This document shows positions 4,769-49,060 of a stretch of 64,000 bases of DNA, piece after piece. Numbering within the stretch: position 1 is the stretch's first letter; each line of letters opens with the position of its first letter. The stretch is from an uncultured Ruminococcus sp. (GTDB lineage: Bacteria; Bacillota; Clostridia; Oscillospirales; Ruminococcaceae): positions 102,117 to 166,116 of the forward strand of contig CAMBLM010000005.1 of the NCBI GenBank assembly GCA_945868475.1. The letters run 5' to 3'. The translations under genes were made by a program, and so were the position numbers. The notes beneath the pieces are model-generated. The model saw only the letters and a program-made list of their open reading frames with translations. It had not been told where the DNA came from and searched no databases.

Positions 4769-5212
4769 ATGTCGGTAGTTAATGAACTTAAAATATCTTT
4801 TCCGTCAAAAAGCTGTAACGAGAGCATCGCAAGAATGTGCGTTGCCGCCTTTGTCGCAAGCGAAGACCCTACCGTGAGCGAGCTTGCCGAGATAAAGACA
4901 GCTGTTTCCGAAGCTGTCACCAACAGTATTGTCCACGGTTACAGGGGAACGCTCGGAACGGTCAGTATTCACGCGCGTTTTTTTGATGATGGTTTGCTCA
5001 CGATAAAGGTTTCGGACAAAGGCTGCGGTATCCCTGATGTTGAAAAGGCGAGAGAGCCGCTCTATACCTCTGCGCCCGAAGAGGAACGCTCGGGACTCGG
5101 TTTTTCGGTAATGGAAAGCTTTACGGACAAGCTGAAGGTCAGAAGCACCGTCGGAAAGGGAACGACCGTAACGCTCCAGCGCAGGCTCGGTGTACATAAT
5201 ACTAATTTTTAA
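4769..5212 (+). CDS. spoIIAB: Anti-sigma F factor / serine kinase SpoIIAB
   Basis: 147 aa with GHKL-type motifs (EAVTNSIVHGY, DKGCGI, GLGFSVM). Position in the operon fits. The last 4 codons and the stop lie inside the family-A repeat. Confidence 0.9.
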   Translation: MSVVNELKISFPSKSCNESIARMCVAAFVASEDPTVSELAEIKTAVSEAVTNSIVHGYRGTLGTVSIHARFFDDGLLTIKVSDKGCGIPDVEKAREPLYTSAPEEERSGLGFSVMESFTDKLKVRSTVGKGTTVTLQRRLGVHNTNF

Positions 5213-5513
5213 TCAAAGTGTAGACAAAAAATCGGCGCAAAATCCATATAAAGGTCACCTCTAAAAACCACCGGCTAAAGCCTTAGCACCTCATCTGCTT
5301 GCAGATTTTCCGTCATCTTGCACATAAATTTCTTGACATACGACATGTATGCAAATTCTTGCTTTGCAATAACTGCGAAATTTCTATACAATCTGACGAA
5401 AAATCTGACTGCGCATCTGAGGCACTATGGTTTTTAGGTGACCTAAAGCTATTTTCAATAGCTGCAAGATTTTGCTTGATTTTTTGTACACTTTCAGTTT
5501 AAAAATTAGAATA
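5197..5513. mobile_element. Family-A palindromic element (A2 subtype) interrupted by a nested family-B element
   Basis: The left arm (5197-5252) and the outer ~45 nt of the right arm (about 5470-5513) match the copy at 48957-49060 almost base for base. The loop-proximal segment 5448-5469 instead resembles the central mini-hairpin of the copy at 37093-37214. The central loop is split by 5253-5443. Confidence 0.8.
5253..5443. mobile_element. Family-B MITE-like element, copy B3, nested in family A
   Basis: Terminal inverted repeats GGTCACCTCTAAAAACC / GGTTTTTAGGTGACC. It is flanked by a direct TAAA duplication (5249-5252 and 5444-5447). Confidence 0.75.
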
Positions 5514-5542
5514 ACGAAAACTGATCGCCGAAAGGACAGAAT

Positions 5543-6208
5543 ATGAACGGGACTGAAACCGATAAGTTTACAGAAGAAAACCTCGGACTGGTGCGGCTCT
5601 GCGCAAACCGATTCCGAGGAAAAGGGATAGAATATGACGACCTCTACAGTACGGGCTGTATAGGTCTGATAAAGGCTGTCAACGGCTTCGACAGCAGCAG
5701 GGGAGTGAAGTTCTCGACCTATGCCGTCCCCGTTATACTCGGCGAGATAAAACGGCTTTTCCGTGACGGCGGAACAGTCAAGGTCAGCCGAGGCGTAAAA
5801 GAGCTTTCGCTGAAAATAACACGCATCAAGGAGGACTTCGGGCAGAAATACGGCAGAGAACCGCAGATATCCGAGCTTGCCGAGCTTACGGGCGAAAGCG
5901 AGGAAAACATCATCGAAGCCGTCTGCGCCGCCCGTCCCGTGCTTTCGCTGACAGCGGACGACGATGGATCCGACGGCGGACAGATCGATATCGCCGTTGA
6001 AGCGCACGATGAGGAAATGGCTGAAACACTCTCGCTCCACGCCGCTCTGCGGACACTGCCCGAAAAGGATCAGCTGCTTATCTATTACCGCTATTATAAA
6101 GATCTTACGCAAACGCAGACCGCCGAAAAGCTTGGTATGACGCAGGTGCAGGTTTCACGGCGTGAAAAGAAGCTGCTGCTCTCACTGAGAAGCTTTCTGG
6201 ACGGATAA
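5543..6208 (+). CDS. sigF: Sporulation sigma factor SigF
   Basis: 221 aa with sigma-70 region 2 (YDDLYSTGCIGLIKAVNGFD, FSTYAVPVILGEIKR) and a region 4 HTH (TQTQTAEKLGMTQVQVSRREKK). It is the third gene of the spoIIA operon. Confidence 0.9.
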   Translation: MNGTETDKFTEENLGLVRLCANRFRGKGIEYDDLYSTGCIGLIKAVNGFDSSRGVKFSTYAVPVILGEIKRLFRDGGTVKVSRGVKELSLKITRIKEDFGQKYGREPQISELAELTGESEENIIEAVCAARPVLSLTADDDGSDGGQIDIAVEAHDEEMAETLSLHAALRTLPEKDQLLIYYRYYKDLTQTQTAEKLGMTQVQVSRREKKLLLSLRSFLDG

Positions 6209-6388
6209 ATAACATTTGTCTGACCGTTGCGAAGCTGAACTAAGTTTAAGTTGATTCTGCAAGAATGTCACTTCAACGCTGTATGAACAGCTTTGTGATA
6301 TGTCAGCAAAAAAGCGGTCTTCGGTAGGCGATCCTATATCCGCCCGTTTTCGTACAACGCAGCTATGATAGTCTGCACACCAAAAGGG

Positions 6389-6979
6389 TTACACATTTTT
6401 CGCTGTAGATAAAATAATTTCCCCACCCGAGATTTTCAGCATAATATCATTGCCGCTTTGGTAAGCTTCGGTCATACACCCCTTTGAGCAGGCTGCAAGA
6501 TGTTCGGCACGGACGATGAGAACCTCGTTTTCAGCAAGGGTACGCTTTATAATGCCGCCCCGAAGCTGAACGAAAACAGTTCCCGAGCCTGACGCTTCGC
6601 AAAGTTCAAAGCGTTTTTCGCCGAATGTTTTGGACATATACGAAGTCAGCTTTGCACCGCCCGAGGCTGCGAAAAATGCTATCGGAGCGAGCAGGATAGG
6701 AGTGTTATCCGAAACCTCAACGGGATATATCGTGCAGGGGGAAACATCGGGAATGAGAGTTATCTCCGCATTGTCGGCGCAGGAGGTGTATTTCCGTGAG
6801 AAAAGTCTGTCTGCGGAAAGACCGTTCTTCAGCGCATCGATGATGTTGTCCGCCGAGCTTATCTCGCAGATATTCTGTGAGAACCAGCTGTCCGTGCCGA
6901 CTTTGGCACTGAGAAGTTCATTTTTATTAAGGAAAACTGTGAGGATGGGAGAATTATCTCCCTCAATCTTATAGTTCAT
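6389..6979 (-). CDS. AIM24/TIGR00266-like protein (divergent paralog)
   Basis: 196 aa with the same N-terminal pattern (M.YKI.G...P......L) and overall layout as the upstream 225-aa gene. Confidence 0.65.
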   Translation of the reverse strand: MNYKIEGDNSPILTVFLNKNELLSAKVGTDSWFSQNICEISSADNIIDALKNGLSADRLFSRKYTSCADNAEITLIPDVSPCTIYPVEVSDNTPILLAPIAFFAASGGAKLTSYMSKTFGEKRFELCEASGSGTVFVQLRGGIIKRTLAENEVLIVRAEHLAACSKGCMTEAYQSGNDIMLKISGGEIILSTAKNV

Positions 6980-7054
6980 TTTAAGATGTTTCCTTTCCTA
7001 TAAATGCAAAAAGAGCCGCCGAAAAAGCAGCTCTTTTGAAGTGATCTATGTACC

Positions 7055-7732
7055 TTAGTTCTTTGAAGCAAGAAGCGGCTGGAGCGAACTTGCGAGTGAT
7101 GTCAAAGGCATTGTCTGGAGCCAGATCTTGCCCGGACCCGTTACCTTTGTGTTGAAAAGTCCCTCGCCGCCGAAGAGCGCGTTTCCGATGCCGCCTGTGG
7201 ACTGGATATCCATTGAGCAGGAAGAATCCATTGCAACAAGGTAGCCCGTGTCGATAAGAAGCGACTGACCTGCGGCAAGCTCATATTCAACGGCTGTGCC
7301 GTCAACTTCGATGAAAACCGTGCCTGTACCCTCATACTTCTGCATGATGAAGCCTTCGCCGCCGAAGAAGCCTGCACCGAGCTTTTTCTGGAAAAATACG
7401 CTCACATTGATGCCAAGTGTGGAAGCGAGGTAAGCGGACTTCTGCGCAACAACAGCCTTGCCGGGCTGAACTTCCATTGCAATGATGTTTCCGGGGACGG
7501 AAGCTGCGAGTGAGATCTCACCTGCGCCGCCCTCTGCGGTGTACTTGTTCTTGAAAAGTGCTTCGCCGCTGACTGCTCTGGAAAGAAGCTGGCCCATGCC
7601 GCCTGTTTTGGTTTCCATTTTCATTGTTGGTGTCATCCAGGACATTGCGCCTTTCTGACATTCAATGCTCTCACCGTTTTCGAGAGAAAATGTTACATAA
7701 GGGAATGGTGCTCCGTCGATCTTGTACTGCAT
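7055..7732 (-). CDS. AIM24 family (TIGR00266/DUF124) protein
   Basis: 225 aa with the characteristic GFFGGEGFIMQK and LFGGEGLF glycine-rich motifs. Confidence 0.8.
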   Translation of the reverse strand: MQYKIDGAPFPYVTFSLENGESIECQKGAMSWMTPTMKMETKTGGMGQLLSRAVSGEALFKNKYTAEGGAGEISLAASVPGNIIAMEVQPGKAVVAQKSAYLASTLGINVSVFFQKKLGAGFFGGEGFIMQKYEGTGTVFIEVDGTAVEYELAAGQSLLIDTGYLVAMDSSCSMDIQSTGGIGNALFGGEGLFNTKVTGPGKIWLQTMPLTSLASSLQPLLASKN

Positions 7733-8033
7733 TTTTCTTTCTCCTCCAATAATAAAATAATTTGAAATACTAATAGTAAATAAAAAGCGTAATATCTTTT
7801 AAATTTCTGTTAAAAAAATATTGTATTTTTATTATACACATTACTGATTTAAATGTCAATACATTTTTGAATTTTTTCGACATTTTTTTGTGTAAATATC
7901 CATAAATGATTGAAAGACATTGATTTTTCCGAACAAAAGTAGTATCATAATAATATGAGATTAAGGAAAAAGAAGGTTTTCGGAGTTTTGACCGCAGACC
8001 TTCAATAATGTATATTAGGAAAGGATAATAATT

Positions 8034-8453: not shown

Positions 8454-8475
8454 TTTTTGCATGATATTTTTTAAC

Positions 8476-9047: not shown

Positions 9048-9049
9048 TC

Positions 9050-9814: not shown

Positions 9815-11515
9815 ATGTCAACAAAAGCCAATTACCCTATTAGCGAAATCGGAGCTGGAAAAGTCGGTTTCTCCAGAACCCGTTCTATCATCGAGGCTGC
9901 TTTCTATGGCAATAACGTAGTAAAAGTAAACACTCTCAAGGAGGCTTATAACCTCGCTAAGAACTCTCCGGGAACAATTGTTACCGATATGCCTGTTTAC
10001 CGCGGCGAAGAATTCGGACTTGACGCTGATGCTAAGGTTCTTCTCTTCAACGACGGTGCTGTTACAGGCCGTTACGCTGCTGCACGCCGCATCAAGGGCG
10101 AGCCGGGCGTTGACGAAGTTAAGCTCGACAAGGTAGTTATGGACGCTATCTACAAGACACGTTTCAAGAAACTCTATCACGCTACCTGCTTCGTTGGTCT
10201 TGATAAGGAATTCATCGCTAAGGCTCATCTCCTCATTCCTGAGGGCGAAGAGAACCTTCTCTACAACTGGATGCTCAACTTCCAGTATATGTCCGATGAA
10301 TATGTAAAAATGTACAAGGATTCCAAGCCTATCGGTGACGGCAAGGAACCTGATATCTACATCTTCTCCGATCCTCAGTGGAAGCCAACAGAGAGCCCTG
10401 ACGTTGATTACAGCTGTCTCTCCGATCCTCTTACACTCTGCTACTTCGATACAAACCAGAACTGCGCTGCAATTCTCGGTATGAAGTATTTCGGCGAGCA
10501 CAAGAAGGGCACACTTACAATGGCTTGGGCACTTGCTAACAGAAACGGCTATGCTTCCTGCCACGGCGGTCAGAAGGAATACACACTTGCTGACGGTTCT
10601 AAGTTCGTTGCTTCCGTTTACGGTCTTTCCGGCTCCGGTAAGTCCACTCTTACACACGCTAAGCACAACGGCAAGTATCCTGCAATCAAGGTTCTCCACG
10701 ATGACGCATTCATCATCAACACAGATACATGTGCTTCTATCGCACTTGAACCTACTTACTTCGATAAGACAGCCGATTATCCTACAGGCTGCCCTGACAA
10801 CAAGTACCTCCTCTCCTGCCAGAACTGCTCCGCTACAATGGACGAAGACGGCAAGATCCAGCTCGTAACAGAGGATATCAGAAACGGCAACGGACGTGCT
10901 CTCAAGTCCAAGCTCTGGTCTCCTAACCGTGTTGACAAGATCGAATCTCCTGTTAACGCTATCTTCTGGATCATGAAGGATCCTACGATTCCTCCTGTTA
11001 TCAAGCTCAAGGGTTCATCTCTTGCTGCTGTAATGGGTGCAACACTCGCTACAAAGACATCTACAGCTGAGCGTGTAAAGGCCGGTACAGACCTTAACGC
11101 ACTCCGTATCGTTCCTTACGCTAACCCATTCAGAACATATCCTCTTGCTAACGACTATGAGAAGTTCAAGAAGCTCGTTGAAGAAAAGAACGTTGCTTGC
11201 TACATCATCAACACAGGCGACTTCATGGGCAAGAAGGTAAAGCCTGCTGATACTCTCGGAATCCTCGAGACTATCGTTGAAGGCAAGGCTAAGTTCGAGA
11301 AGTGGGGTCCTTTCGAGGATATGGAGATCATGCCTTGGGGCGACTTCGAAGTAAACCTCAACGACAAGGACTACACTGCACAGCTTAAGAATGCTATGCA
11401 GAACCGTCTTACAAGCGTTGAAAAGTTTGCAACAGACAAGGGCGGCTATGATAAGCTTCCTGACGATGCGGTTGCAGCTATCAAGAAGGTTGTTGACGAA
11501 GCAGCAGCACTTTAA
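9815..11515 (+). CDS. pckA: Phosphoenolpyruvate carboxykinase (ATP)
   Basis: 566 aa with the kinase-1a motif GLSGSGKSTLTH, and a strong AGGAGG RBS. Confidence 0.95.
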   Translation: MSTKANYPISEIGAGKVGFSRTRSIIEAAFYGNNVVKVNTLKEAYNLAKNSPGTIVTDMPVYRGEEFGLDADAKVLLFNDGAVTGRYAAARRIKGEPGVDEVKLDKVVMDAIYKTRFKKLYHATCFVGLDKEFIAKAHLLIPEGEENLLYNWMLNFQYMSDEYVKMYKDSKPIGDGKEPDIYIFSDPQWKPTESPDVDYSCLSDPLTLCYFDTNQNCAAILGMKYFGEHKKGTLTMAWALANRNGYASCHGGQKEYTLADGSKFVASVYGLSGSGKSTLTHAKHNGKYPAIKVLHDDAFIINTDTCASIALEPTYFDKTADYPTGCPDNKYLLSCQNCSATMDEDGKIQLVTEDIRNGNGRALKSKLWSPNRVDKIESPVNAIFWIMKDPTIPPVIKLKGSSLAAVMGATLATKTSTAERVKAGTDLNALRIVPYANPFRTYPLANDYEKFKKLVEEKNVACYIINTGDFMGKKVKPADTLGILETIVEGKAKFEKWGPFEDMEIMPWGDFEVNLNDKDYTAQLKNAMQNRLTSVEKFATDKGGYDKLPDDAVAAIKKVVDEAAAL

Positions 11516-11556
11516 TGCGTAATGCTTAATGCATAATGCGTAATTAAAAAATCAAA

Positions 11557-11599
11557 CCGCAATTCACTCCCGAAAAGGTGTGGGTTGCGGTTTTTGTTT
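11557..11599 (+). terminator. Intrinsic terminator of pckA
   Basis: CCGCAATTCAC-loop-GTGGGTTGCGG (with G-U pairs) followed by TTTTTGTTT. Confidence 0.75.
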
Positions 11600-11607
11600 A
11601 GTATAAA

Positions 11608-11658: not shown

Positions 11659-11727
11659 AAAATTTTTATCGTAGTGAAAAAGCTGCATTTGGGGAAGAGA
11701 TAATAATTACGCATTACGCATTAAGCA

Positions 11728-12132
11728 TTACGCATTGATTATAAGCCATTTCCCCTTTGATTTGGTCATAAAGAGCGTTTTCTGTTCGGTTTCGTGGTCT
11801 TTTTCATTGTAGACCGTGACCTTTACATTGACATTGTAGCCGTTTTCTGTCTTTTCGCGCGAAACAAAATCGGCGGAAACGGTGAAATCCTCGCCCCACT
11901 CGGCGATATACTGCTCACGGAGAGAATCAAACTCCTTTTCGGAGATCGATTTTTCACCGAAGCACTGCTGATACTCCTTGTAAATGCCATGGGTGAACGA
12001 AGAATACGCTTTGTCAATGGTTTTCATCTGTCCGCTTGTCACAGACTTGATGATTATGAGTACCACAAGTGCTGCGACCGTCAGCGCACAGAAGATAATG
12101 CTGATAATTTTTGCTGTTGAATGTTTGCTCAT
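11728..12132 (-). CDS. Hypothetical membrane-anchored protein
   Basis: 134 aa with an N-terminal TM helix (IISIIFCALTVAALVVLIII) and a soluble beta-rich domain. It is the last gene of the operon. Confidence 0.6.
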   Translation of the reverse strand: MSKHSTAKIISIIFCALTVAALVVLIIIKSVTSGQMKTIDKAYSSFTHGIYKEYQQCFGEKSISEKEFDSLREQYIAEWGEDFTVSADFVSREKTENGYNVNVKVTVYNEKDHETEQKTLFMTKSKGKWLIINA

Positions 12133-18678: not shown

Positions 18679-18723
18679 CAGCACCGCAGCTTTGGTCGGA
18701 AGATCAAAGCTGCGGTGCTGTTT
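18679..18723 (+). terminator. Intrinsic terminator of amt
   Basis: CAGCACCGCAGCTTTG-loop-CAAAGCTGCGGTGCTG followed by TTT. Confidence 0.7.
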
Positions 18724-18827
18724 AATACTAAACACCAATAAAACTATAGACAAAAAATCGGCGCAAAACCCATATATCAGAGTTTTTGCTTGATTTTTTG
18801 TATAGTTTTTAATTGGTGTTTAGTATA
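18724..18827. mobile_element. Family-A palindromic element (A1 subtype)
   Basis: AATACTAAACACCAATAAAACTATAGACAAAAAATCGGCGCAAAACCCATA ... TTTTTGCTTGATTTTTTGTATAGTTTTTAATTGGTGTTTAGTATA. Confidence 0.8.
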
Positions 18828-18937
18828 ATGCCAAACATCAATAAAACTATGGACAAAAAATCATTGCATGATCGATTTGTGCAAGATCATACTCGATTTT
18901 TTGTTAGTGTATGGTTTTTAATTGGTGTTTGGAATAA
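18828..18937. mobile_element. Family-A palindromic element (divergent A1 copy), in tandem with the previous copy
   Basis: AATGCCAAACATCAATAAAACTATGGACAAAAAATC ... CGATTTTTTGTTAGTGTATGGTTTTTAATTGGTGTTTGGAATA. Confidence 0.7.
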
Positions 18938-18945: not shown

Positions 18946-19779
18946 TTATTTTTTCTCGTAAATAAGTATCTCAAATGCGATCTCGGTTTCAAGCTGCGAA
19001 AGAGCCTCAACTCGGCGGTGACCCTCTTCGCTCGTCTTATAATAGTAAGGCGTCATCGAGAAAAGATTTTGGATATCTTCGTTGTTGTCAAGCCGTATCT
19101 TCGAGCTTACGGGGATTTTTTCAAGCAGGGTGAAGCCCTCGGGTTCGCTTTCCTTTGGTTCGTTCAGGTAAGGATCATCATAGACAGCCGCTTTGAGCTG
19201 CCAGAGGTGGCGTTCCGCGGGAATTACCATTATAAGAGTGCCGTTTGGTTTGAGTACACGCAGGAATTCCTCGCCGCACCAAGGCGCGAAAAGCGTTGTG
19301 AGCATATCGCACGAACCGCTTTTTACGGGTAAATGAAACACGCTGCTGACCGAGAAAAGCACGTTTGAAATGCCCTCGGCTTTTGCTCTCTTTGCTGCAG
19401 CGTCCGCCGCCGTTTTGGATATGTCCGTTCCCATAAAGAACATTTCGGGAGCTTTTTTTGCGGCTGAAACGGTGTAGATGCCCTCGCCGCAGCCTGCGTC
19501 AAGCACGACGCCTTTTGTGACGGAATATTTTTTCACGAAGTCGGAAAAGGCATTTATAAGAACATCGTAATAGCCTTTGCTGAGAAAATTTTTGCGCGCA
19601 TTTACCATAAGCTTGTTGTCGCCCGGGAGCTTTGTGTTCATCTGCCGGACGAGGAGCAGGTTCACATAGCCGCTTCGGGCGCAGTCATAAACGTGGTTTG
19701 CCGTGCAGCGGAAGCTGCCGCCGTCATGGTGAAGAGGTTCGCCGCATTTCGGGCAGATATATGAGTGAGATTCGTTCAT
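18946..19779 (-). CDS. rlmA: 23S rRNA (guanine745-N1)-methyltransferase RlmA
   Basis: 277 aa with an N-terminal zinc ribbon (CPKCGEPL...CTANHVYDCARSGYVNLL) and the SAM motif LDAGCGEG. Confidence 0.85.
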   Translation of the reverse strand: MNESHSYICPKCGEPLHHDGGSFRCTANHVYDCARSGYVNLLLVRQMNTKLPGDNKLMVNARKNFLSKGYYDVLINAFSDFVKKYSVTKGVVLDAGCGEGIYTVSAAKKAPEMFFMGTDISKTAADAAAKRAKAEGISNVLFSVSSVFHLPVKSGSCDMLTTLFAPWCGEEFLRVLKPNGTLIMVIPAERHLWQLKAAVYDDPYLNEPKESEPEGFTLLEKIPVSSKIRLDNNEDIQNLFSMTPYYYKTSEEGHRRVEALSQLETEIAFEILIYEKK

Positions 19780-25983: not shown

Positions 25984-26087
25984 ATTATACCAAACACTAT
26001 TTAAAATTTGGAAAAATCAAGCCGATGATCTCGCATATATAGGGTTTCGGCGCAGATTTTTTCTGTATTTTATTGGTTTTTAGTATT
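25984..26087. mobile_element. Family-A palindromic element (hybrid arms, inverted orientation)
   Basis: The reverse complement reads AATACTAAAAACCAATAAAATACAGAAAAAATCTGCGCCGAAACCCTATA ... GGCTTGATTTTTCCAAATTTTAAATAGTGTTTGGTATAAT. It overlaps the last 5 codons and stop of the 26070 gene. Confidence 0.7.
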
Positions 26088-29000
26088 AGCAGCTTTTGCT
26101 TTTTTCTTCTTTCTGACCGCTCTTGCCGAGAAAATTATCACAAGGACTATGATAATGATCACAACTGCTGTTACTGCGATGAGGAAGATATTCAATGTTT
26201 TGTATACTGCAAGTATTTCGGGTGAATTTCCGCTTGCTTCAAAGCTGAGGTAGCTGCCGATATGACGTGTTTCGGCTTTTTTCCACTCGCCGCTGCTGCT
26301 CTTGACGTATATCTCGGGGTCACGCTTGCTTTCTGCGTTGACGAGATAGCGGAGGTTATGTGTTTCGCTGTTATCGTTAGGAACAGTGAGCATCCAGCTT
26401 TCGCAAAGCTCAGTCTTATCCATAAGGAAGATGGTCGGCGGAGTCTGGTTCACATACTCGTTCTGCTGAACGGGGAGAGTATCATCTTCGGTGAAGATGC
26501 CCTCTGCGAGCCATATCGGTTTGCCGCCGTCACGGCAGTCGTTCGAGCGGACGTTCTTGATGACAGTGAAATATTCGGCTTCGATCTCCTTATCGATATG
26601 GAGATCTTCGAGTGAATCATAGTTCCACTTTGCGTAGCAGTCGTCCTTTGCGGGAATAGCGGGAAGCTCGCTTTCGTCAATGGTGTCGCCGTAGGAGAAT
26701 TCGATCTTATCGACAACGTTGTCATCTGCGATGAACTTCAATGTGAACGTGCGGAATTCCTCGGGGATATTTGGTATTGAGATGAGCTGCTGATAGGGGA
26801 TAGGCTCTGCCGCACCCTTATAGCTTGCACCGTTAAGTCCGCTGAGTTCGTCCGAAACGAAGTAGTTGCCTTCAAATTCGCCGTCGGCCGTGCCGCTTAT
26901 AGCGCCGAAGTAGGACTGGCTGTCGGTGATATCAATGAGTGAATAGCAGTTCATGACTGTATCTGCGCTTCCTGCAATGCCGCCGATGTAGTTTCTGCCC
27001 GAGAGCAGAGCTTTAGCATAGCAGCTGATGATCTTTGCGGAGGATTTGCCCGAGATGCCGCCTACATAGTCGCCGCTTTCGGAGGTGACTTTGCCGAATG
27101 CTGAGCAGTTTTTTACAACGCCGAGGCTCATCTGACCTGCGATGCCGCCTGCGCAGTTCTTCTTAGCGATAACTTCGCCGTAGTTGGTGTTCTTGATAGC
27201 GGCAGCTTTTGTTTCAAGCTTCTGATTGAGCGGCGAGTCGGTCTTGCCCGAAATATCATCTTCGGGGTCGAAGTCATATTCGATAGCCATCTGACCTGCG
27301 ATGCCGCCTATATTGAGGTCGCCGCTGATAGTGCCGTAGTTTGTGCATTTGTAGACCTTGCCGTTTTTGATCTTGTCGGTATCGACATCGGAGGTATCCT
27401 TGATATAATCCTCTTCGTCGTCGATATCGAGCATATCTGTGATGATATCACTGACAACGTAGGTCTGGTCGTTTATCTTCACGAGGTTGTCGGAAAGTGT
27501 CACGCCTGCGTTTGAAGCCTGAACATTGAGCGTATTCATGGCATCGATGAACGAAGTGAGCGAGGAGAAGAGGTTCTCCGTATCGTCCTTTATGCTGTCA
27601 TCGGGAGTGCCTATCTCGACTGTTTCAACTTCGTTGAGAAAATCGAAAAGCTCACTTGTCTGATTGGAAATATCGGTGAAAATATCAGTAGTGTTGGTGA
27701 ATGCCGTAAAAGCGTCAGAGAACAGTCCGAACGAGGAGTTCACGTCTTTTCCTGTATCGGCGGTGTTGTCAAGGATAGTATTGATGTTCTCTGTGGATTC
27801 ATCAGTGCCGTTGATAGCTTCACCGAGGGCTTTGATGCCGTCCGATGCGTCTATAAGACCGTTGTAGATCGTGTCTGAGTCGATATCAACACTGTCGGCG
27901 ATTATTTCTGCACCCGATGAGATAGTACCCATAGCGTCGGAGGCTTTGGAAATGCTGTCGGCGAGGTCGGATAATTCATTGGAGATATCCGGAGGAATAT
28001 CACCGCCGCCCGAAAGTATATCGGATATCGCATGTACAGCATCCGCAATGCCCTGAGTTGCATCGGAAAGCTCATTCAAGCCGGCCTTTATAAGCTCAAA
28101 ACCCGCAGTTGCGCCTGTAGAACCGTCCGAAGCGGAGCTGTTGAGGGAGTCGGCGACCTTTTTCAGTCCGTCACCTATCTTGGTGGAAGCATCGTTAGCT
28201 TTTTCCGAGGCTTCCTTTATTGAATCGGAGAGCTTTTTCAGCTTATCGACGGAATCATCGGTGTATTTCTGTGTTCCCGAAAGGCCGTCGAAAGCTTCGG
28301 AAAGTCTGTCAGAGCCTGTGGAAAGGCTGTTTGTGGCATCAGGTATAAGTCCTGTTATTTTGTCAAGACGTTCGATAGCATCGGAGATGACTGCGCTCGT
28401 GCGGTCGATTTCCGATGTTACATGATCGCCGTAATCGGTGAGCTTCTGCTGAATATTGTCGGCACTGTCTGTTGCGCTCTGCAAATAGCCCGATGCGCTC
28501 TCAACAGTTGAATTTATGGAGAGTGAATCATCGTTTGTTTCGTTTATTGCTGTGTCGATGAGGTTTGTGAGCTTTTCAAGCTCATCTTTCAGCTCATCCA
28601 TATTGTCGGGGTTGATGTTAACAACGAGATAAGGTTCCATCTGACCTGCAATGCCGCCGATGTCTTTCCTGCCGTTGAGTCGTCCATAGTTGCTGCAGTT
28701 TATGATAAGTCCCGAGCTTCTGCCTGCAATACCGCCGATGTTGTAGCCAACGTGGGGATAGCCGATGCTTCCGCTGTTTTCACAGCTGAATATCGTACCC
28801 GTTGAATAGCCTGCAATTCCGCCTGTATCGGTCGCAGATGAAGTTTCATCCGAGGACGATGATTTTTTTGTGTAGCTGTCAACGTCCGTGAGTGTTGAAA
28901 GGTCGATGTCTTCAAGGCTGTGCTTCTTTTCCTCGTTCGTGGTGTTGACCGAGGCTGCATTTATGCTCTGGACGATATTGCCGCTGTTGTTTCCGACAAC

Positions 29001-37092: not shown

Positions 37093-37214
37093 TAATGCTA
37101 AACACCAATAAAACTATAGACAAAAAATCTGTGCAAAATCCATATCAAGCTGTTTTTAACAGCTGCGAGTTTTTGCTTGATTTTTTGTATAGTTTTTAAT
37201 TGGTGTTTAGCATA
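37093..37214. mobile_element. Family-A palindromic element (A1 subtype with extra central mini-hairpin)
   Basis: AATGCTAAACACCAATAAAACTATAGACAAAAAATCTGTGCAAAATCCATA..AGCTGTTTTTAACAGCT..TTTTTGCTTGATTTTTTGTATAGTTTTTAATTGGTGTTTAGCATA. Confidence 0.8.
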
Positions 37215-37217
37215 ATA

Positions 37218-38027
37218 TCAGCTTCCCTTTATTGCGAGCGGCTTGACAGAGGAACGTCTTGTGATAAGGCAGGATATGAGCAGCAGTATCAGCGAAGCAC
37301 CGATGAATACCGCAGCACCCTGTGAGGCATTTCCTATAAACGGAGCATCTGAACTCGGATCAACAAGATCTGCAAGTCCGACCAATTTCACAACACTGCA
37401 CCAGAATGATGCCAATGCGTCTTCGCCCAGTGCGAAATAAATTCCTCCAGTTGGGATGAAAATTAACAAAAGTGTGATTATCAAAGCTGCCCAGTTAGAA
37501 AGTTTGTATGAAATTGAAGCGATCAGTATAACAACTGCACATAATGCAATGTAGCTGAATATTGCTATGCCCAAAAAACGAAGCCTTACTGCAAAATCAC
37601 TCCAACCCTCGTCATACAGAACGTAGTTTACACCGTAAAGCGATGCACCCCACATTTCGTCATCTCCCGTTATCAATGACATGATCGGAAAAATTACAGA
37701 AACCTCAAGAGCCGAAATTATGGAAAATATTACAGAGGATATGTATGCGGAAACGCAGGCTGTTGTCCTTGAAGTTCCGTTTGCGGCAGCTGTGTTGAAA
37801 AAGTCTGTGATGTTTGCACACATAAATGCGAATATGAATATGCCGATCAAAGCATCAAATCCGTTCTGTCCCGTTTCGCGAAGACTGAACGGAACTTTTT
37901 CTGTAAGAGATCTGATCGTTGCGGAAATCAGCATAGAGCCGATCACCCAAATAAGGTAAAATAACGGAACTGATCTTAATCTGTAAAGCTGATATTTGCA
38001 GTTTGCGATAATACTGTTTGCTGACAT
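37218..38027 (-). CDS. Polytopic membrane protein; probable permease partner of the adjacent ABC ATPase
   Basis: 269 aa with about 6 TM helices. It is the third gene of a GntR-ABC-membrane operon. Confidence 0.6.
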   Translation of the reverse strand: MSANSIIANCKYQLYRLRSVPLFYLIWVIGSMLISATIRSLTEKVPFSLRETGQNGFDALIGIFIFAFMCANITDFFNTAAANGTSRTTACVSAYISSVIFSIISALEVSVIFPIMSLITGDDEMWGASLYGVNYVLYDEGWSDFAVRLRFLGIAIFSYIALCAVVILIASISYKLSNWAALIITLLLIFIPTGGIYFALGEDALASFWCSVVKLVGLADLVDPSSDAPFIGNASQGAAVFIGASLILLLISCLITRRSSVKPLAIKGS

Positions 38028-39431: not shown

Positions 39432-39520
39432 ATAATGCTAAACACCAATATAAACCTGTTAAAAACAGCTACGAGATTATCGGCTTGATTTTTTCCAAAT
39501 TTTAAATGATGTTTAGTATA
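39432..39520. mobile_element. Family-A palindromic element (short hybrid copy)
   Basis: ATAATGCTAAACACCAATATAAACCTGTTAAAAACAGCTACGAGATTATCGGCTTGATTTTTTCCAAATTTTAAATGATGTTTAGTATA. Confidence 0.65.
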
Positions 39521-39525
39521 AAGTT

Positions 39526-41931
39526 TTATTTTACGGAAAAAGGAATGTTTCCACCAGTGAATTGAACGCTGTCAGCTGAGAATATTCCCGAAACAACTTC
39601 AATTTCGACTGTATGAACATCGTCAGCAAGTCCGTCAATGCCGTAAGCAATGTCACGGACTTCACATTCGGGAACGGAATAGCTTTCAGCGACGGTTTTG
39701 CCGTCAATTTTTACGTTTATGACCGCGTTCTGCTTGTTTTCGCCGACAACAGCAAAGCCGTTTCCGCTGAAATTCAGCGTCATGACCGCGCCTGCACTTC
39801 CGTTTGAAAGCGTCCGCTTGTAATTTGCAAAGCTGCCCGTTGTGATATGCTCCCAATCGCCCGAATAATCGCAGCAAAGGTCGGTATTATCATAACGTGT
39901 GATGTAACAATTTTCGTTCGGCTCAATTAGAAGATGAGCAAACATATTTCTGTTAAAAGAGCTGTAAAATGCTGCTCTGCCTGCGCTTTGAACGCATTTG
40001 TCGGTGAAGTCGATGACTTTTTCGCCGCTGATAAAGCATTGGATATTATCGTACCGAACGGAAATTTTCAGCGGTGTGGATCCGTGAACGTTTACCTTGG
40101 ACGACCCGCTTTCAAGCACGGTTTTATTCTTCATGAGCGAGTAAGTTCCGTCCTCGGAGAGCTTCAGCCAGTAGCCGCTTTCGCCCTTGTGACCCTCGCT
40201 GTAGCGAAGTCCGATGCCCGCGTAGTTTTTGTCGGGTTCGGCACTATCGCAAAGCTTTACCTCGGCGGAAACGCTGTAATTGTACCAGCGGTCGTCACCG
40301 AAATTCGTTGTCGGGTTTGGCGTGAAACCCCATTCCTCGGCTTTCGTTTCAGGCGTTATCTGCTGAACAAGAATATTTCTGCCGTTGATATTCTCAACTT
40401 CAAAAGCTCCGCCCTCGTCCGTGGTGAACATCGGCGCACCGCCCCTTGCACGAATAAATTCTTCGCCGTAATCAAAATCATCGGAGTAGGGGAGAGCGAG
40501 AACAGTACGTTCGCTTTCAGGCATATTTACATAGTCGTTCACAGCTTTGACCGTGGATAAAGTTATTATTGAGAAAGGCTTTACAGTCACGCTGTAGGAA
40601 TATTTTCCATCGGCTTCGGTTGGTGTTATCGTGTCTGTCTTCTTGAAATAATTCTCATCATAGCTGCCATTGTCAGGACCTCTTGTTTCCCGGACATCGA
40701 CTTCGGACGAAGCTTTTTCAAGGTTGGAAACGGTGATATCGTAAATAATGGGTTCGGATGTCGAGTTTGTGATAACTGTGCTGTAGTCGCCGCTGTCGGG
40801 GTCGCAGGCTGTGATATAGCTGAAAACAGAATCGACAAGTGCATGACCGTCGCCGCCCGTTTTGGCGTCAGCGTGACAAGCACTGTCAATGTATGTCCAA
40901 CCCTTTTTGATGAACTGCGAAAAATGAAGCGACATAAAAAATCCGCTGTCGAGATAATAATATCCGCTCCAAGGGTCGCAGGCGGAGATGAACTGCTTCT
41001 GGCAGTAGCAAACACCGTCATAATAAGCCGCAATGACAGGCTGCAATTCACACATCGTCATTTTGCCGCTCGCATACATCATTATAAGTCGGTTTGCGAT
41101 GTCGAGAACACCGTTGAGGTCGCCCAGTCCCGAGCCATTCCCGTCAAAACGGTAAATTCCCTGTGCGTAGCTCATGGACGAACTGCCCTCGCTGAACCAA
41201 AGCTCCTTGCCGTGTTCTTCCGCAAGCTTTTTGGCCGCATCGGTGGACATACTCGTGTAGTGACTGCCGACAACATCGACCGCCGACATAAGCTTTTCGT
41301 CCTCAAACATTCGGTCGGCAAAGCCCCAGGTGCAGACCTCTTCACCGCCGACTATCTTAATTTTTGAATAATCATAAGGGCAGTCTGTTTCGCTCTTCAA
41401 ATGCTTCGAAAGATACTTCACCCATTCGAGATCAGCACCGCGCTCATTGCGCACAACGCTCACATAATCGAACTTCAAGCCGTAAGTTTCATACGCCGCA
41501 TCAAGCGTTTCTTTGTACCATTTGTAGCGTGCAGCGTGAACATTGTCAGCCTTTGTCACCCACAGCGGTTCGCTCCACCAGAGCATATCAAGCTCCAGAT
41601 CGGGGTTGATCTTTTTCGCGTCGGCGGCGAGCTGATAGCCCGCACCGCGCGTAACATCGGCTTTTTCGTCCTCATAACGCTTTACGCAGGGTTCAGTTCC
41701 CGATGAAGAATTCACGTCAGAACCCATTTCAAGCTTTAGAAAATTCACACCGATGCCGTGCTTTCCAAATGTGTATTCAAGTATTTCATTGTATCTGTCG
41801 GGATGTTCCGATTTGTAGTCGAGCAAAAGCCGTGAAGAATTGTTTCCCGATACCATTCCTGCGCCGCGGAATCGCATATTTAAAGCCGTATTTGCATTTT
41901 TACCGTCGATAGTGAAGCTTTTTTTTCTCAT
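39526..41931 (-). CDS. Glycoside hydrolase family 59-like (galactosylceramidase-type beta-galactosidase) with C-terminal beta-sandwich domains
   Basis: 801 aa. The N-terminus (RFRGAGMVSGNNSSRLLLDYKSEHPDRYNEILEYTFGKHGIGVNFLKLEMGSDVNSSSGTEP) parallels the GALC/GH59 N-terminal pattern. Confidence 0.7.
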   Translation of the reverse strand: MRKKSFTIDGKNANTALNMRFRGAGMVSGNNSSRLLLDYKSEHPDRYNEILEYTFGKHGIGVNFLKLEMGSDVNSSSGTEPCVKRYEDEKADVTRGAGYQLAADAKKINPDLELDMLWWSEPLWVTKADNVHAARYKWYKETLDAAYETYGLKFDYVSVVRNERGADLEWVKYLSKHLKSETDCPYDYSKIKIVGGEEVCTWGFADRMFEDEKLMSAVDVVGSHYTSMSTDAAKKLAEEHGKELWFSEGSSSMSYAQGIYRFDGNGSGLGDLNGVLDIANRLIMMYASGKMTMCELQPVIAAYYDGVCYCQKQFISACDPWSGYYYLDSGFFMSLHFSQFIKKGWTYIDSACHADAKTGGDGHALVDSVFSYITACDPDSGDYSTVITNSTSEPIIYDITVSNLEKASSEVDVRETRGPDNGSYDENYFKKTDTITPTEADGKYSYSVTVKPFSIITLSTVKAVNDYVNMPESERTVLALPYSDDFDYGEEFIRARGGAPMFTTDEGGAFEVENINGRNILVQQITPETKAEEWGFTPNPTTNFGDDRWYNYSVSAEVKLCDSAEPDKNYAGIGLRYSEGHKGESGYWLKLSEDGTYSLMKNKTVLESGSSKVNVHGSTPLKISVRYDNIQCFISGEKVIDFTDKCVQSAGRAAFYSSFNRNMFAHLLIEPNENCYITRYDNTDLCCDYSGDWEHITTGSFANYKRTLSNGSAGAVMTLNFSGNGFAVVGENKQNAVINVKIDGKTVAESYSVPECEVRDIAYGIDGLADDVHTVEIEVVSGIFSADSVQFTGGNIPFSVK

Positions 41932-46957: not shown

Positions 46958-46962
46958 AACAA

Positions 46963-46995
46963 ACAGCCGCAGACAAAAACGCCTGCGGCTGTTGC
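46963..46995. terminator. Bidirectional terminator hairpin
   Basis: ACAGCCGCAG-loop-CTGCGGCTGT. Confidence 0.65.
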
Positions 46996-47011
46996 TGTTC
47001 ATTTGGAAAGA

Positions 47012-47638
47012 TCAGAATAACTGACCCGGAAGTTTAAGCTTTTCCTTTGGCGGAAAAAGCTTGTCGAATTCTTCCGTTTCGGTTTCGCCAACGAAGTAAC
47101 CCTGCGGCGGAGAGTAAACGCCCGTTATGCCGTCAAGATATCCAGTTTTAAGCTCCTTGCAGAGGAAGAACGAATCGTCCGCACCATCGGGCAGACCGTG
47201 ATAGCGGATACCGAACTCTCTTGCATAAGTGAAGCCGCTCTTGCCGTAAAAGTCAATGTTTCCCTCAAAGCAGAGCGCACCTGCGCCGAGTTCAGCCGCC
47301 TTTTCAAGCGAATAGTCGAGCAGTTTTTTGCCGTTGCCCTTACGCTTGAATTCGGGCGAAATGCATATCGGTCCCATCGTCATTATCGGGATATCTCTGC
47401 CATCATCGGCGGCGATGAACGCCCTCATGAACATATTCTGACCGATGAGCTTCCCGTCCTTTTCCATAACAAAGTCAAGTTCGGGGACGAAAGCAGGGTC
47501 GTTTCGCAGCTGATGAAGCACATAATGCTCCATACAGCCGGGGCGGTAGACGTTCCAGAATGATTCTCTTACAAGGTTTTCGACCTCACGGTGTTCGTTG
47601 TTGTTTTCCAAGCGAATGATATAGTCATTTTTATTCAT
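47012..47638 (-). CDS. GNAT family N-acetyltransferase
   Basis: 208 aa. The acetyl-CoA pocket pattern reads ISPEFKRKGNGKKLLDYSLEKAAELG. Confidence 0.8.
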   Translation of the reverse strand: MNKNDYIIRLENNNEHREVENLVRESFWNVYRPGCMEHYVLHQLRNDPAFVPELDFVMEKDGKLIGQNMFMRAFIAADDGRDIPIMTMGPICISPEFKRKGNGKKLLDYSLEKAAELGAGALCFEGNIDFYGKSGFTYAREFGIRYHGLPDGADDSFFLCKELKTGYLDGITGVYSPPQGYFVGETETEEFDKLFPPKEKLKLPGQLF

Positions 47639-47818
47639 TATTTAATCCTCCTGATGATCGTTGACTGCGGTTCCGGGAGGTTTTGCGGAAAATGTATTGG
47701 TCAAACCTCCGTCAGCCTAATACAATCTCCAAGGTGTTGTTTTTCTTCAAACAGCTTTCTCCTTTAATGTAAAATGTGAATATATAGATTAAGCTTTTCG
47801 GCAGGATCGGCGATAGAA

Positions 47819-48385
47819 TTATGGTTGTTTTTCGGCTTCACTTCTTTTATAAAGCCTTACCATTCTCGGGCGGTTGTATCTTTGCAGGATAACGAAAAAG
47901 GTATCACAAAGTCCTGCGAAAAATGCGGTTATTACAAAGATAAAGATATATCTTTTAGGGTCGGGCGTGAAAAAGCTGAACAACAGCGAAGCATATCCGA
48001 GCAGGATTATCAGTTCGTGAATTATCTCCGCTGCACACATATTTTCTATGATCTTTTTCATATCGTTGTGTTCGAGCGAAAATTTCTGCGGCTCCCAAGT
48101 CGGAATAAAGTGCTTCCACTTTTTCACTCGCAGAAGTTTGTACAGCTTCTTTTCAAGTTTTGTTTCGCAGAACCACCTGCTTTGCGTGTTTATCCCGTCT
48201 TTGGTAAAGTGATCGACAGCTGTGCCTACAGCGAGCCGCATTGCGAAATGGTAGAACATCGTTGCGAATGTTATTGTCAGCGAGAACCAAAGCGTTGTAA
48301 GATACGTTTTGTAAAGGATAAAAAATATCAGCGCAAGCACCGCCGTGACAACGGTAATGATTTTAAAAAGCTTACTGAACTGCAT
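47819..48385 (-). CDS. Small integral membrane protein (possibly glycosyl-diaponeurosporenoate acyltransferase-like family)
   Basis: The start is set at MQFSKLF after a GGAG RBS. It has 4 TM helices and a C-terminal QRYNRPR motif. Confidence 0.5.
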   Translation of the reverse strand: MQFSKLFKIITVVTAVLALIFFILYKTYLTTLWFSLTITFATMFYHFAMRLAVGTAVDHFTKDGINTQSRWFCETKLEKKLYKLLRVKKWKHFIPTWEPQKFSLEHNDMKKIIENMCAAEIIHELIILLGYASLLFSFFTPDPKRYIFIFVITAFFAGLCDTFFVILQRYNRPRMVRLYKRSEAEKQP

Positions 48386-48402
48386 AAAGTTCTCCGTTTC
48401 TG

Positions 48403-48939
48403 TCAGCCGCAAAGCTCCGCGATTTTCCTCACCGTGTTAGCGGTTCGTATAGTGAGAAATTCGCCGATGCCTGCGCTTGCGGTCTTTTTCCACCAGTTTG
48501 CCTTTGCGTAATTTTTTCTGTCGAACGACCAGAAGATAACGTTCTTGTATATGAATATCTTTTCAAGCTTTTCGGACGGCTCGCCGATCTTTTTGCTGAT
48601 TTCTTCCGCTGTTGCGGTTGGCATTACGAAGATAAGGTTGTCGTAAATGTCTTTGTCAGCCGTTCCCCACCATTCGGGAGCGTTTTGCAGTATGTCGGCG
48701 ATCTTTTCGCTGTCGGTAACGTAAACTTCTGTCAGAACGCCGAAGCTTTCGCTTATTATCTCTTTTATATCGTCCGAGGTGAAGCTTTTTTCTGCGGAGA
48801 AAATGACATTTCCGCTGTTGAAATGCGTTTTTACGTCGGTGAAGCCGAGCTTTTCAAAGGCTGTTTTCAGTTCAGCCATAACGATTTTATTCTTGCCGCT
48901 GATGTTTATTCCTCGGAGCAAAGCAATGTATCTTTTCAT
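48403..48939 (-). CDS. DUF1697 domain protein
   Basis: 178 aa. The N-terminus MKRYIALLRGINISGKNKIVMAELK is typical of DUF1697. Confidence 0.8.
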   Translation of the reverse strand: MKRYIALLRGINISGKNKIVMAELKTAFEKLGFTDVKTHFNSGNVIFSAEKSFTSDDIKEIISESFGVLTEVYVTDSEKIADILQNAPEWWGTADKDIYDNLIFVMPTATAEEISKKIGEPSEKLEKIFIYKNVIFWSFDRKNYAKANWWKKTASAGIGEFLTIRTANTVRKIAELCG

Positions 48940-48956
48940 TTTGTCACCTATCGTTG

Positions 48957-49060
48957 TAATACTAATTTTTAATCAAAGTGTAGACAAAAAATCGGCGCAA
49001 AATCCATTTATTCGAGCTTTTGCTTGATTTTTTGTACACTTTCAGTTTAAAAATTAGTAT
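48957..49060. mobile_element. Family-A palindromic element (A2 subtype, intact)
   Basis: TAATACTAATTTTTAATCAAAGTGTAGACAAAAAATCGGCGCAAAATCCAT ... TTTTGCTTGATTTTTTGTACACTTTCAGTTTAAAAATTAGTAT. Its right end supplies the last codons and stop of the 49047 gene. Confidence 0.85.

Follow-up and report, generated by a model that had tools for sequence, protein, structure and literature searches.

Family A, a palindromic repeat of gut Oscillospiraceae, is probably an undescribed non-autonomous transposon with a T-N-A target duplication

The palindromic repeats of the 64-kb window (the whole stretch of DNA that was analysed) form a family, family A, which we regard, with a probability of roughly 0.8, as an undescribed non-autonomous DNA transposon (MITE) of about 105 bp that resides in gut Oscillospiraceae. 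Its copies are repeated, have the potential to form hairpins, are flanked by a target duplication, are found as filled and empty sites, nest in one another, show covarying arms, lie in random orientation and are biased towards stop codons. As selfish DNA, family A is of an ordinary type, though it has a few odd details and some REPIN-like traits.

Results

The seven copies reported by the first-pass annotation are all present, shifted by a few bases at most in BLAST and nhmmer searches, and a relaxed profile search of the whole 64-kb window adds no eighth (Table 1). The internal deletion of c6 was deduced from a comparison with L088:1067-1188. In the sister strains L007 and L008, c1 is present but lacks the 192-bp insert, and an ortholog of c7 is kept at L083:1298-1402, in a genome about 92% identical. 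The stop codon is inside the element in c1, c4 and c7 and 2-8 nt away from it in c3, c5 and c6, which bears out the description of six copies near a stop codon with c2 lying beyond the amt terminator.

Table 1. Family A copies, the family B insert and two empty sites in the window (copy limits take in the flanking 3-bp duplications)
Feature	Position	Strand	Type and flanks	Setting
c1	5197-5513	+	TTTTT arm subtype; TAA at 5197-5199 and 5511-5513	between spoIIAB and sigF; spoIIAB stop (5210-5212) inside the copy
Family B insert	5252-5443		unrelated 192-bp MITE; TSD TAAA	in the loop of c1
c2	18723-18828	+	ACACC subtype; TAA/TAA	inside the T-tail of the amt-PII terminator, 119 nt past the amt-PII stop
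c3	18826-18937	+	diverged copy; variant inner stem GCATGATC/GATCAT; left TAA is also the right TAA of c2	8-nt gap to the stop codon of an rlmA-like methyltransferase gene (18946-19779, minus strand)
c4	25985-26088	- (inverted)	'hybrid' subfamily; TTA/TTA on the + strand, TAA/TAA in element orientation	contributes the final six codons and stop (26070-26072) of a 1185-aa GLUG-motif protein
c5	37093-37215	+	ACACC subtype with optional loop-module hairpin AAGCTGTTTTTAACAGCT; TAA/TAA	separates the stop of a gene (37218-38027, minus strand) from the terminator hairpin of the same gene
c6	39433-39521	+	'hybrid' subfamily; left inner arm internally deleted; TAA/TAA	4 nt from the stop of a GH59 gene (39526-39528)
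c7	48957-49062	+	TTTTT subtype; TAA/TAT	between two co-directional genes; contributes the terminal codons of gene 49047-50123 (minus strand), including its stop (49047-49049); lies 18 nt upstream of the start of a DUF1697 gene
Empty site 1	11598-11600		single TTA	T-tail of the PEPCK terminator
Empty site 2	47694-47698

The unit is non-coding and 100-105 bp long, or 120-157 bp with loop modules; it runs from TACTAA to TTAGTA, most subfamilies finishing in ATTAGTA, and its inverted arms of 35 nt are 80-86% complementary. It had been proposed that every copy folds into a near-perfect hairpin. This stands for c1, c2, c3, c5 and c7, which fold far beyond chance (z -6 to -11, with 0 of 100-200 shuffles as good; RNA z -10.1 for c2, -6.1 for c3, -10.8 for c5 and -8.5 for c7; c2 as DNA, -10.4 on the + strand and -9.9 on the - strand), but not for c4 and c6, which fold only weakly (RNA z -3.5 and -3.2, respectively; c4 as DNA, -2.2), in agreement with the remark that hybrid copies pair less well. 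The folding energy of the single-stranded DNA is the same for both strands. Almost every copy retains an AG bulge in GTAGAC, and 78 of 82 retain a G·T pair at columns 40/73.

In a wider search, about 25 Oscillospiraceae genomes yielded at least 107 full-length copies (107 among the matches listed, which form the set used here), with at least 95 real loci in these MAGs. The same 3 bp stand on both flanks in 86 of the 107 copies among the matches listed, as a direct duplication T-N-A in which the outer bases are invariant (T 86/86, A 86/86) and the centre is A in 72, T in 9, C in 3 and G in 2, TAA making up 84% of the duplications. The matched flanks TTA/TTA, TCA/TCA and TGA/TGA show that this is a duplication and not a fixed terminal sequence; departures from TNA number 11 on the left flank and 9 on the right, i.e. 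decay is equal. Comparison with relatives gave two filled/empty pairs. At the PEPCK site, L027 (UMGS1327), a 96%-identical relative, carries a 105-bp copy flanked by TTA...TTA, and the single TTA of the window rules out a TA duplication; at the other empty site, L083:2659-2763 holds a 'hybrid' copy between flanks about 92% identical. In addition, L111 has one family A copy inserted within the loop of a second, and copies of families A and B occur inside one another. The idea of a MITE-like dispersed palindromic family is supported, the duplications, filled and empty sites and nested insertions identifying it as a transposon.

Which base stands at the centre of the duplication depends strongly on the orientation of the element (TAA 72 versus TTA 9), and this bias is reversed to TTA in one genome, a Huintestinicola MAG, across five to six arm subfamilies; target specificity follows the host genome and not the element subfamily. 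The 'hybrid' subfamily is separate, conserved and still mobile, and has kept its non-complementary middle arms in at least seven genomes. Mobility of these poorly pairing copies indicates that a full-length perfect hairpin is not required for movement.

Covariation of the arms, described from the window copies as preserving pairing, holds in a larger alignment of 82 distinct copies and 41 stem pairs, in which 91% of cells are paired, against at most 50% when the partner is slid. Both sides vary in 21 stem pairs, and both-side changes amount to 258 cells against 78 in shuffles, 0 of 500 shuffles attaining the observed values. Six adjacent stem positions near the tips have two to three Watson-Crick pair types each; column pair 12/100 is AU in 26 copies, UA in 26 and CG in 25, and column pair 11/101 is CG in 38, UA in 19 and AU in 14. 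Within subfamilies, unpaired columns change about three times as often as stem columns. The opposition that had been drawn between selection on structure and common descent is nevertheless a false choice, as the arm subtypes are lineages, each derived from a master copy. Covariation sits between lineages, a pattern that indicates a limit on what can transpose, or homogenisation of the arms, rather than selection locus by locus. The co-varying arms would reflect a constraint, at the DNA level, on which copies yield new copies, and they are no evidence that the host uses an RNA function of the repeats.

Copies do favour the vicinity of stop codons, though only moderately. The description of copies as parked at gene 3' ends fits six of the seven in the window but just 38% of the family: 41 of the 107 copies among the matches listed lie within 15 nt of a stop codon, compared with 16% of permitted TAA/TTA sites (p about 4e-8, for copies that are not fully independent). 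Stable hairpins are present in the flanks of 30% of copies versus 15% of control sites. Orientation relative to the upstream gene is random (26 sense versus 24 antisense), 13 of the 107 copies among the matches listed lie between divergent genes, the stem is not followed by a T-tract, and c1 scored no terminator-like site. The stems are A/T-rich and the element end is TTAGTA plus TAA; on direct reading of the sequence, two of the three frames are closed by stop codons whichever end is entered, and about a quarter of the copies give the neighbouring gene a new stop codon and new C-terminal residues.

Searches for a partner enzyme gave negative results. As had been noted, the window contains no transposase domain in the ORFs scanned up to 59.6 kb (four ORFs at 59.6-64 kb fall outside the scan), nor did these ORFs contain an integrase. 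No IS-sized element with family A ends is present in about 800 kb of related loci, and a scan of 241 million metagenome records for the inner left end without the right arm brought up only MITE variants. No gene family recurs beside the copies at about 95 loci among the matches listed, the recurrent clusters being housekeeping genes. Rfam returned 0 matches at gathering thresholds; below them were only eukaryotic miRNA precursors, which are generic long hairpins (18-32 bits, for thresholds of 48-211). We found no plasmid record, phage annotation or paper that matches family A, and, in agreement with the earlier failure to assign it to a named repeat class, no named family matches it.

Discussion

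In the mechanism that we propose, a family A element of about 100 bp consists almost entirely of two terminal inverted repeats of about 45 bp around a short loop, so that either strand folds as one long hairpin. An enzyme supplied in trans, presumably of the DDE type, would insert it at T-N-A by a 3-bp staggered cut that is repaired to a 3-bp duplication, and the element persists and still moves in a gut Oscillospiraceae clade, at roughly one copy per 9-23 kb. Copies accumulate right after genes or in their last few codons, probably in part because TAA and the A/T-rich tails of terminators are the preferred target, because the element brings stop codons in two of three frames on either side, and because selection purges insertions elsewhere; a balance of selection and targeting may lie behind the 3'-end bias. 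The ends might have to remain complementary as a folded single strand or a cruciform, or might be kept alike by template switching within the palindrome.

Some observations fit a DDE-type MITE poorly. The absence of an autonomous partner from the scanned ORFs, the 800 kb of loci and the metagenome scan counts against it, and an orientation-biased central base is not expected from a symmetric DDE complex. If the enzyme of the genome with the flipped bias ignores the sequence of the boxes, it is hard to see why double-stranded ends should be complementary, and a substrate folded from a single strand is favoured; such a substrate is atypical of DDE transposons, and the mobility of the poorly pairing 'hybrid' subfamily speaks against it.

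Covariation could be purely mutational, a possible though doubtful reading in which quasi-palindrome template switching copies short arm patches without any selection for pairing. Long, close and complementary arms are an ideal substrate for quasi-palindrome mutagenesis, and those of family A are long, close together and highly complementary; moreover, three or more compensated changes are each found in one copy alone (columns 45/69 in L024, 5/107 and 17/95 in L033), versus about 0.1 expected from independent hits. However, efficient homogenisation should erase inherited bulges and hybrid mismatches, while subfamilies stably transmit their bulges, mismatches and G·T pairs, also from genome to genome, and the hybrid middle arms have stayed non-complementary, all of which counts against this reading. 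We consider improbable a second reading, in which an enzyme reads the folded hairpin (its shape, the AG bulge and the TACTAA tip), not the sequence of the arms, and inserts it strand-specifically at T-N-A with a 3-bp duplication, the central base being set by the variant of the enzyme in the host (TAA in most genomes, TTA in the Huintestinicola MAG); if true, this would be a Gram-positive REPIN-like system that joins structure-dependent recognition with staggered-cut insertion. It is quite unlikely that family A is a REPIN-like replicator proper, with a single-copy enzyme of the HUH/Y1 type (RAYT or IS200-like), or another that reads structure, acting on the hairpin folded from single-stranded DNA; the flanking TNA would then be a strand-specifically read cleavage and target motif instead of a staggered-cut duplication. 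Like REPINs, in which compensatory changes are documented (PMC3116915), family A has two inverted halves forming a hairpin with such changes, and no autonomous IS of the same sequence turned up in the 800 kb of loci or the metagenome scan. Maintenance of the stem while the sequence of the boxes drifts stepwise, the conserved bulge and G·T pair, the orientation-specific target that tracks the host genome and the retention of an orthologous copy across genomes about 92% identical also favour a REPIN-like nature. Against it, the flanks match for all four central bases and decay equally, as a generated duplication predicts, the poorly folding hybrid subfamily is mobile, and whole 105-bp units are gained and lost precisely, in Gram-positive anaerobes. 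Target duplications are not known from REP/REPIN and IS200/IS605 elements; RAYT genes typically have REPINs on both sides, whereas no RAYT-like gene was seen to recur beside family A at about 95 loci among the matches listed.

Finally, the copies might be RNA elements selected by the host, 3' UTR hairpins that act as transcription terminators, as barriers to 3' exonucleases or as uncouplers of neighbouring genes. The proximity to stop codons in the window and in the family, RNA folds down to -34 to -49 kcal/mol and the position of many copies between a stop codon and the native terminator, where they would be transcribed, are in favour of this. We nevertheless hold it to be very unlikely: an RNA hairpin role, raised in the first-pass annotation, is left without support by the random orientation, the lack of a T-tract, the copies between divergent genes and the equal folding of both strands. 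Furthermore, genomes whose flanks are 92-96% identical differ in whether they have a copy, the copies insert into one another, c2 lies beyond a complete terminator, and no Rfam family corresponds to them. The non-autonomous transposon remains the preferred interpretation.

Among known systems, bacterial MITEs such as Correia/NEMIS of Neisseria and RUP of Streptococcus pneumoniae resemble family A in being non-coding hairpins of about 100-150 bp bounded by terminal inverted repeats, with a short target duplication, many intergenic copies, insertion beside or into one another and mobilisation in trans. Correia/NEMIS and RUP duplicate TA and are linked to IS630-type elements, whereas family A duplicates 3 bp with an orientation bias, has inverted repeats that span almost the whole element, has no partner IS found and shares no sequence similarity with them. 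A 3-bp duplication with outer T and A, as in family A, is the signature of the IS5-family groups IS1031, ISL2 and IS427 and of PIF/Harbinger and Tourist elements (a review reportedly covers the diversity of target duplications in the PHIS superfamily). The IS5/PIF-Harbinger groups start with GG or GAG, in contrast with the TAC...GTA termini of family A; no DDE transposase was found in the window ORFs to 59.6 kb, the 800 kb of loci or the metagenome, and the central base of family A is orientation-specific, which is not expected for TWA targets. Features of MITEs in general (PMC10969869) are present in family A: it is short (under about 500 bp) and non-coding, with terminal inverted repeats, a target duplication of fixed length and multiple copies with insertion polymorphism. 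Its stable stem-loops at gene 3' ends also recall intrinsic terminators and SPRITE, the terminator-like repeats mentioned in the same review, but family A has no T-tract, its stem greatly exceeds that of a terminator in length, and the copies have native terminators beside them.

Integron attC sites are imperfect palindromes after stop codons, with conserved extrahelical bases and conservation of structure rather than sequence, and family A resembles them in these respects only. The attC core sites R''/R' are RYYYAAC...GTTRRRY; family A has no GTTRRRY core sites, most subfamilies lacking a GTT core at their end, no integrase in the scanned ORFs and no cassette array, its target duplication, irregular spacing, mixed orientation and housekeeping neighbours also setting it apart, and it is not a member of this class.

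Family A constitutes a natural data set, with many complementary arm variants, one genome in which target specificity is flipped while the elements are unchanged, and no visible partner; with it one could ask whether recognition of some bacterial MITEs depends on folded DNA and not on sequence. It also rewrites gene 3' ends, one copy lying within the spoIIAB-sigF sporulation operon, and its copies can serve as strain-level presence/absence markers. The present work gives a precise description of a repeat that fragments assemblies of widespread uncultured gut Oscillospiraceae: short-read contigs often end within family A copies.

Family A copies in the window and their gene context

Repeat finding, BLAST of each copy against the window and two profile searches gave seven copies of family A, the hairpin repeat of about 105 bp under study, and none further even at E = 10. 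The first-pass annotation, made from the sequence alone, had placed seven copies at essentially the same positions, and its placing of six of them at stop codons, with the 18724-18827 copy lying past the amt terminator, agrees with the gene context. Its statement that every copy is a long near-perfect hairpin holds for c1, c2, c3, c5 and c7, which each form one long hairpin (z -6 to -11 relative to shuffled sequence), but not for c4 and c6, which fold weakly (z about -3). By Pfam annotation the genes of the window are those of a spore-forming, carbohydrate-degrading Firmicute; in the ORFs scanned, which reach up to 59.6 kb, no transposase, integrase or Y1 domain was found. The coordinates of the features are collected in the following table.

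Family A copies and neighbouring repeats in the window and in related loci (L-numbers)
Feature	Position	Remarks
c1	5197-5513	inside the spoIIAA-spoIIAB-sigF operon
c2	18723-18828	just beyond the amt-PII terminator
c3	18826-18937	2-8 nt from stop codon
c4	25985-26088	inverted; provides last codons and stop of upstream gene
c5	37093-37215	2-8 nt from stop codon
c6	39433-39521	internally deleted; 2-8 nt from stop codon
c7	48957-49062	provides last codons and stop of upstream gene
Family A loop module	L086:5730-5886, L052:2226-2381, L053:3511-3649, window 37146-37165	
Family B MITE	window 5252-5443	192 bp; inverted repeats GGTCACCTCTAAAAACC/GGTTTTTAGGTGACC; TSD TAAA at 5248-5251 and 5444-5447
Family B, other copies	L086:7712-7910	TSD TTAA
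	L088:2805-2973	
	L029:5217-5479	
Family C (third MITE-like family)	window 4085-~4282 and 9608-~9795	94% alike over 154 nt
TAATGCR minisatellite	window 11514-11546 and 11704-11736	33-nt inverted repeats, 97% complementary

Copy c1 lies at the end of spoIIAB, whose frame reads into it and stops at 5210-5212; when c1 is taken out, direct reading of the sequence restores the spoIIAB end ...GVHNEN*, with the sigF ATG 22 nt downstream. The operon (4440-6208) is split by c1 and a nested family B insert. The last two spoIIAB codons are replaced (..HNEN* to ..HNTNF*), and the gap to sigF now holds 330 nt of DNA rich in structure. All recovered strains with identical SigF carry c1, L007 with a 14-bp deletion within it and L001 with a 21-bp deletion within the nested element.

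Family A is a transposon

Several kinds of evidence show that family A transposes. Among 107 full-length copies recovered with their flanks by a profile search of related loci, 86 have the same trinucleotide on both sides (TAA/TAA 72, TTA/TTA 9, TCA/TCA 3 and TGA/TGA 2). Since matched pairs occur with every central base, the trinucleotide is duplicated on insertion and is not a fixed element end; the element proper is TACTAA...TTAGTA. In L027 (UMGS1327), whose flanks are 96% identical to the window, the T-tail of the PEPCK terminator holds a 105-bp copy with TTA on either side, while the same site in the window reads GTTTTTGT-TTA-GTATAAAAT, a precise empty site with a single TTA. A TA duplication of the IS630 type is ruled out, as the empty site is one TTA, not TTA-TA-TTA. 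A second pair is formed by L083:2659-2763 (filled) and window ~47694-47698 (empty). Nesting was also found, one family A copy lying within the TAA of another copy's loop hairpin (L111) and another inside a family B copy (L029), besides the family B element within c1. That copies can be long-lived as well is shown by c7, which has an orthologue in a genome about 92% identical; this orthologue differs at 3 of 106 nt where the flanks are 92-95% identical, a conservation that is not significant. Sister-strain contigs around c2/c3 and c5/c6 keep the copies or stop inside them, and no empty site was obtained there. The GLUG-motif protein gene at c4 has an orthologue in L042 (83% identity), and there too a family A copy (L042:2317-2421) lies just past the 3' end; the two copies differ in subfamily and in position, so the element inserted independently at this gene end in each genome.

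Target preference

Of the independent insertions 84% are at T-A-A, and T is mildly enriched at -2 and A at +1/+2. TAA and TTA are one site on opposite strands, and relative to the asymmetric interior of the element they occur in a 72:9 ratio. An artefact of the orientation that nhmmer assigns to palindromes is ruled out as the source of this bias, because the asymmetric interior sets the two orientations about 67 bits apart. In a Huintestinicola MAG 7 of 9 copies, spread over 5-6 box subfamilies (the box being the variable arm segment near the tips), are flanked by TTA/TTA, while virtually identical elements in other genomes are flanked by TAA/TAA. The bias in the central base of the duplication goes with the host genome rather than with the element.

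The preference for gene ends is real but moderate. In 41 of 107 copies an ORF that is at least 100 aa long has its stop no more than 15 nt away, and at 26 flanks the stop codon falls inside the element. Among TAA/TTA sites that spare all but the last seven codons, 16% are equally close to a stop, which makes a 2.3-fold enrichment over copies that are not fully independent. Part of it can be explained by selection against insertions in promoters. Between divergent genes lie 13 of the 107 copies. Strong hairpins are found in 30% of copy flanks compared with 15% at control sites, an excess that fits insertion around terminators.

The arms covary, and the constraint is most likely on DNA

In alignment A2 (82 distinct copies of about 105 bp, with a hairpin of 41 pairs), 91.3% of cells are paired, a share that falls to 39-50% if the partner columns are offset by 1-3. 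Changes on both sides affect 21 pairs and 258 cells, compared with 78 cells in shuffles, and not one of 500 shuffles attained any of the observed measures. The proposal that the arms change together with pairing preserved is therefore confirmed on a much larger sample. Variation is centred on the box (element positions 7-12): column pair 12/100 is AU 26, UA 26 and CG 25 times, 11/101 is CG 38, UA 19 and AU 14 times, and 13/99 is CG 56 and UA 20 times. Read directly, the box variants (ACACC, AAACC, TAACC, ACCCC, TCCCC, TCCCT, TCTCT, TCTTT, TTTTT and others) are joined by single steps, so the change is stepwise and compensated; three or more compensated changes each occur in one copy only, and inside subfamilies the rate of change per column is about three times lower in the stem than at unpaired positions. 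Hardly any variation is seen in the tip TACTAA, the inner GACAAAAAATC/GATTTTTTGT or the bulged AG of GTAGAC. The hybrid subfamily (c4, c6 and at least 12 further copies, in at least 7 genomes) pairs only over the terminal 12 bp and an inner 8 bp and is nevertheless mobile, so that a full-length perfect hairpin is not required.

The covariation had been ascribed to selection on structure, a view that is right in part, as transposon biology but not as an RNA or host function. Copies within 50 nt of a stop are 26 sense and 24 antisense to the gene concerned, the stem is not followed by a T-tract, terminator scoring gave no such site in c1, and native terminators adjoin family A copies. Copies are gained or lost between genomes 92-96% identical at the flanks, and the two strands fold equally well as single-stranded DNA (-28.2 and -29.5 kcal/mol for c2, -23.5 and -24.9 kcal/mol for c7). 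On the reference strand G·T cells outnumber A·C cells (132 vs 52), a possible sign of a reading as RNA or as a single strand, but just three columns account for this excess. Taken together, these observations lend no support to an RNA function; most likely the constraint acts on the DNA, on the capacity of a copy to be mobilised, or arises by arm-to-arm template switching.

The loop of family A may hold a further small hairpin, an optional module about 17-18 nt long (AAGCTGTTTTCAACAGCT). In some copies a two- to threefold tandem amplification of this module has produced a minisatellite within the MITE, and the TAA of the module's loop serves in turn as a target for insertion, as in L111.

Putative enzyme and relation to known elements

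The simplest reading of these properties is that one trans-acting enzyme per genome would set the target and mobilise many box variants. Such an enzyme would have to ignore the individual bases of the box, and if it does, the complementarity of the box is hard to explain by recognition of double-stranded ends. Pairing of ends 250-4000 bp apart over about 800 kb of loci gave only separate MITE copies and no IS-sized element, and clustering of the ORFs near copies gave recurrent families of housekeeping genes only, with no candidate enzyme. Two scans of viral contigs with terminal patterns returned almost only chance matches and two MITE copies, and a metagenome scan meant to exclude MITEs, by requiring the inner left end with no right arm after it, gave one chance match and otherwise only MITEs that contain a short loop module.

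Family A is a real and previously undescribed MITE family. The Rfam search proposed at first pass matched no family at gathering thresholds, nor at relaxed ones, where only generic long-hairpin miRNA models appeared below threshold; a literature search found no paper that contains the core sequence strings or describes such a family, and no relevant MITEs in Ruminococcaceae. Family A fits the structural definition of a MITE except for an identified partner. A 3-bp TNA duplication is made by some groups of the IS5 family and by PIF/Harbinger-Tourist elements. Family A resembles them in this, but no such transposase was found and its orientation bias is atypical. REPINs are not known to make a target duplication, and in this family A departs from them; it resembles them in its hairpin with compensated changes (PMC3116915) and in having no visible parent IS. 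The likeness to integron attC sites is a functional analogy only. The main interest of family A lies in the combination of arm evolution that preserves structure, a target specific for orientation and host, and a missing partner.

Relatives and copy number

An exact-pattern scan for the core AGACAAAAAATCNGNGCAAAA in one genome per species gave at least 104 stretches. Among the matches listed, about 95 belong to about 25 MAGs of gut Oscillospiraceae, including Huintestinicola, several 'uncultured Ruminococcus' UMGS bins and bins from Hadza, rabbit and water-deer samples; the other nine are single chance occurrences in unrelated phyla. Not counting the seeding copy, related loci have about one copy per 23 kb, and the window has one per 9 kb, which implies a load of about 100-300 copies per genome, an order of magnitude based on local density. 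As the ends of MAG contigs fall repeatedly inside copies, family A is a systematic source of assembly breaks. Short-read contigs often terminate within copies (L359-L369, which are Logan contigs, and L012, L014, L022, L038, L039, L041, L045, L074 and L079), for example a set of 2294-bp contigs with c5 and c6 at their borders.

Plasmid records gave no BLAST match. Among phage records, 21 unannotated 'Bacteriophage sp.' contigs from human faeces carry family A copies. The copies are 82-87% identical to c2, and the contigs (MT835868.1, MT836567.1 and 19 others) may be phage or prophage DNA or bacterial carry-over.

Neighbouring repeats

Family B, which makes a 4-bp A/T duplication, occupies the loop of c1 in the window; sister strains L007 and L008, which have identical SigF, lack this insert. 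The insert holds a predicted sigma-70-like promoter, TTGCAA-17-TACAAT, directed at sigF. The ends of family C, GGGAACCTCTAAAAACC.../...GGTTTTTAGAGAACCCC, are related to those of family B. Its two copies lie upstream of spoIIAA/GH2 and of PEPCK, respectively, and the first is missing in strain L008 (BLAST gap 4085-4283). The minisatellite of 7-nt TAATGCR units surrounds two convergent terminators between PEPCK and the gene at 11728-12132 (minus strand), and L027, a relative with 96% identity, has a different number of units.
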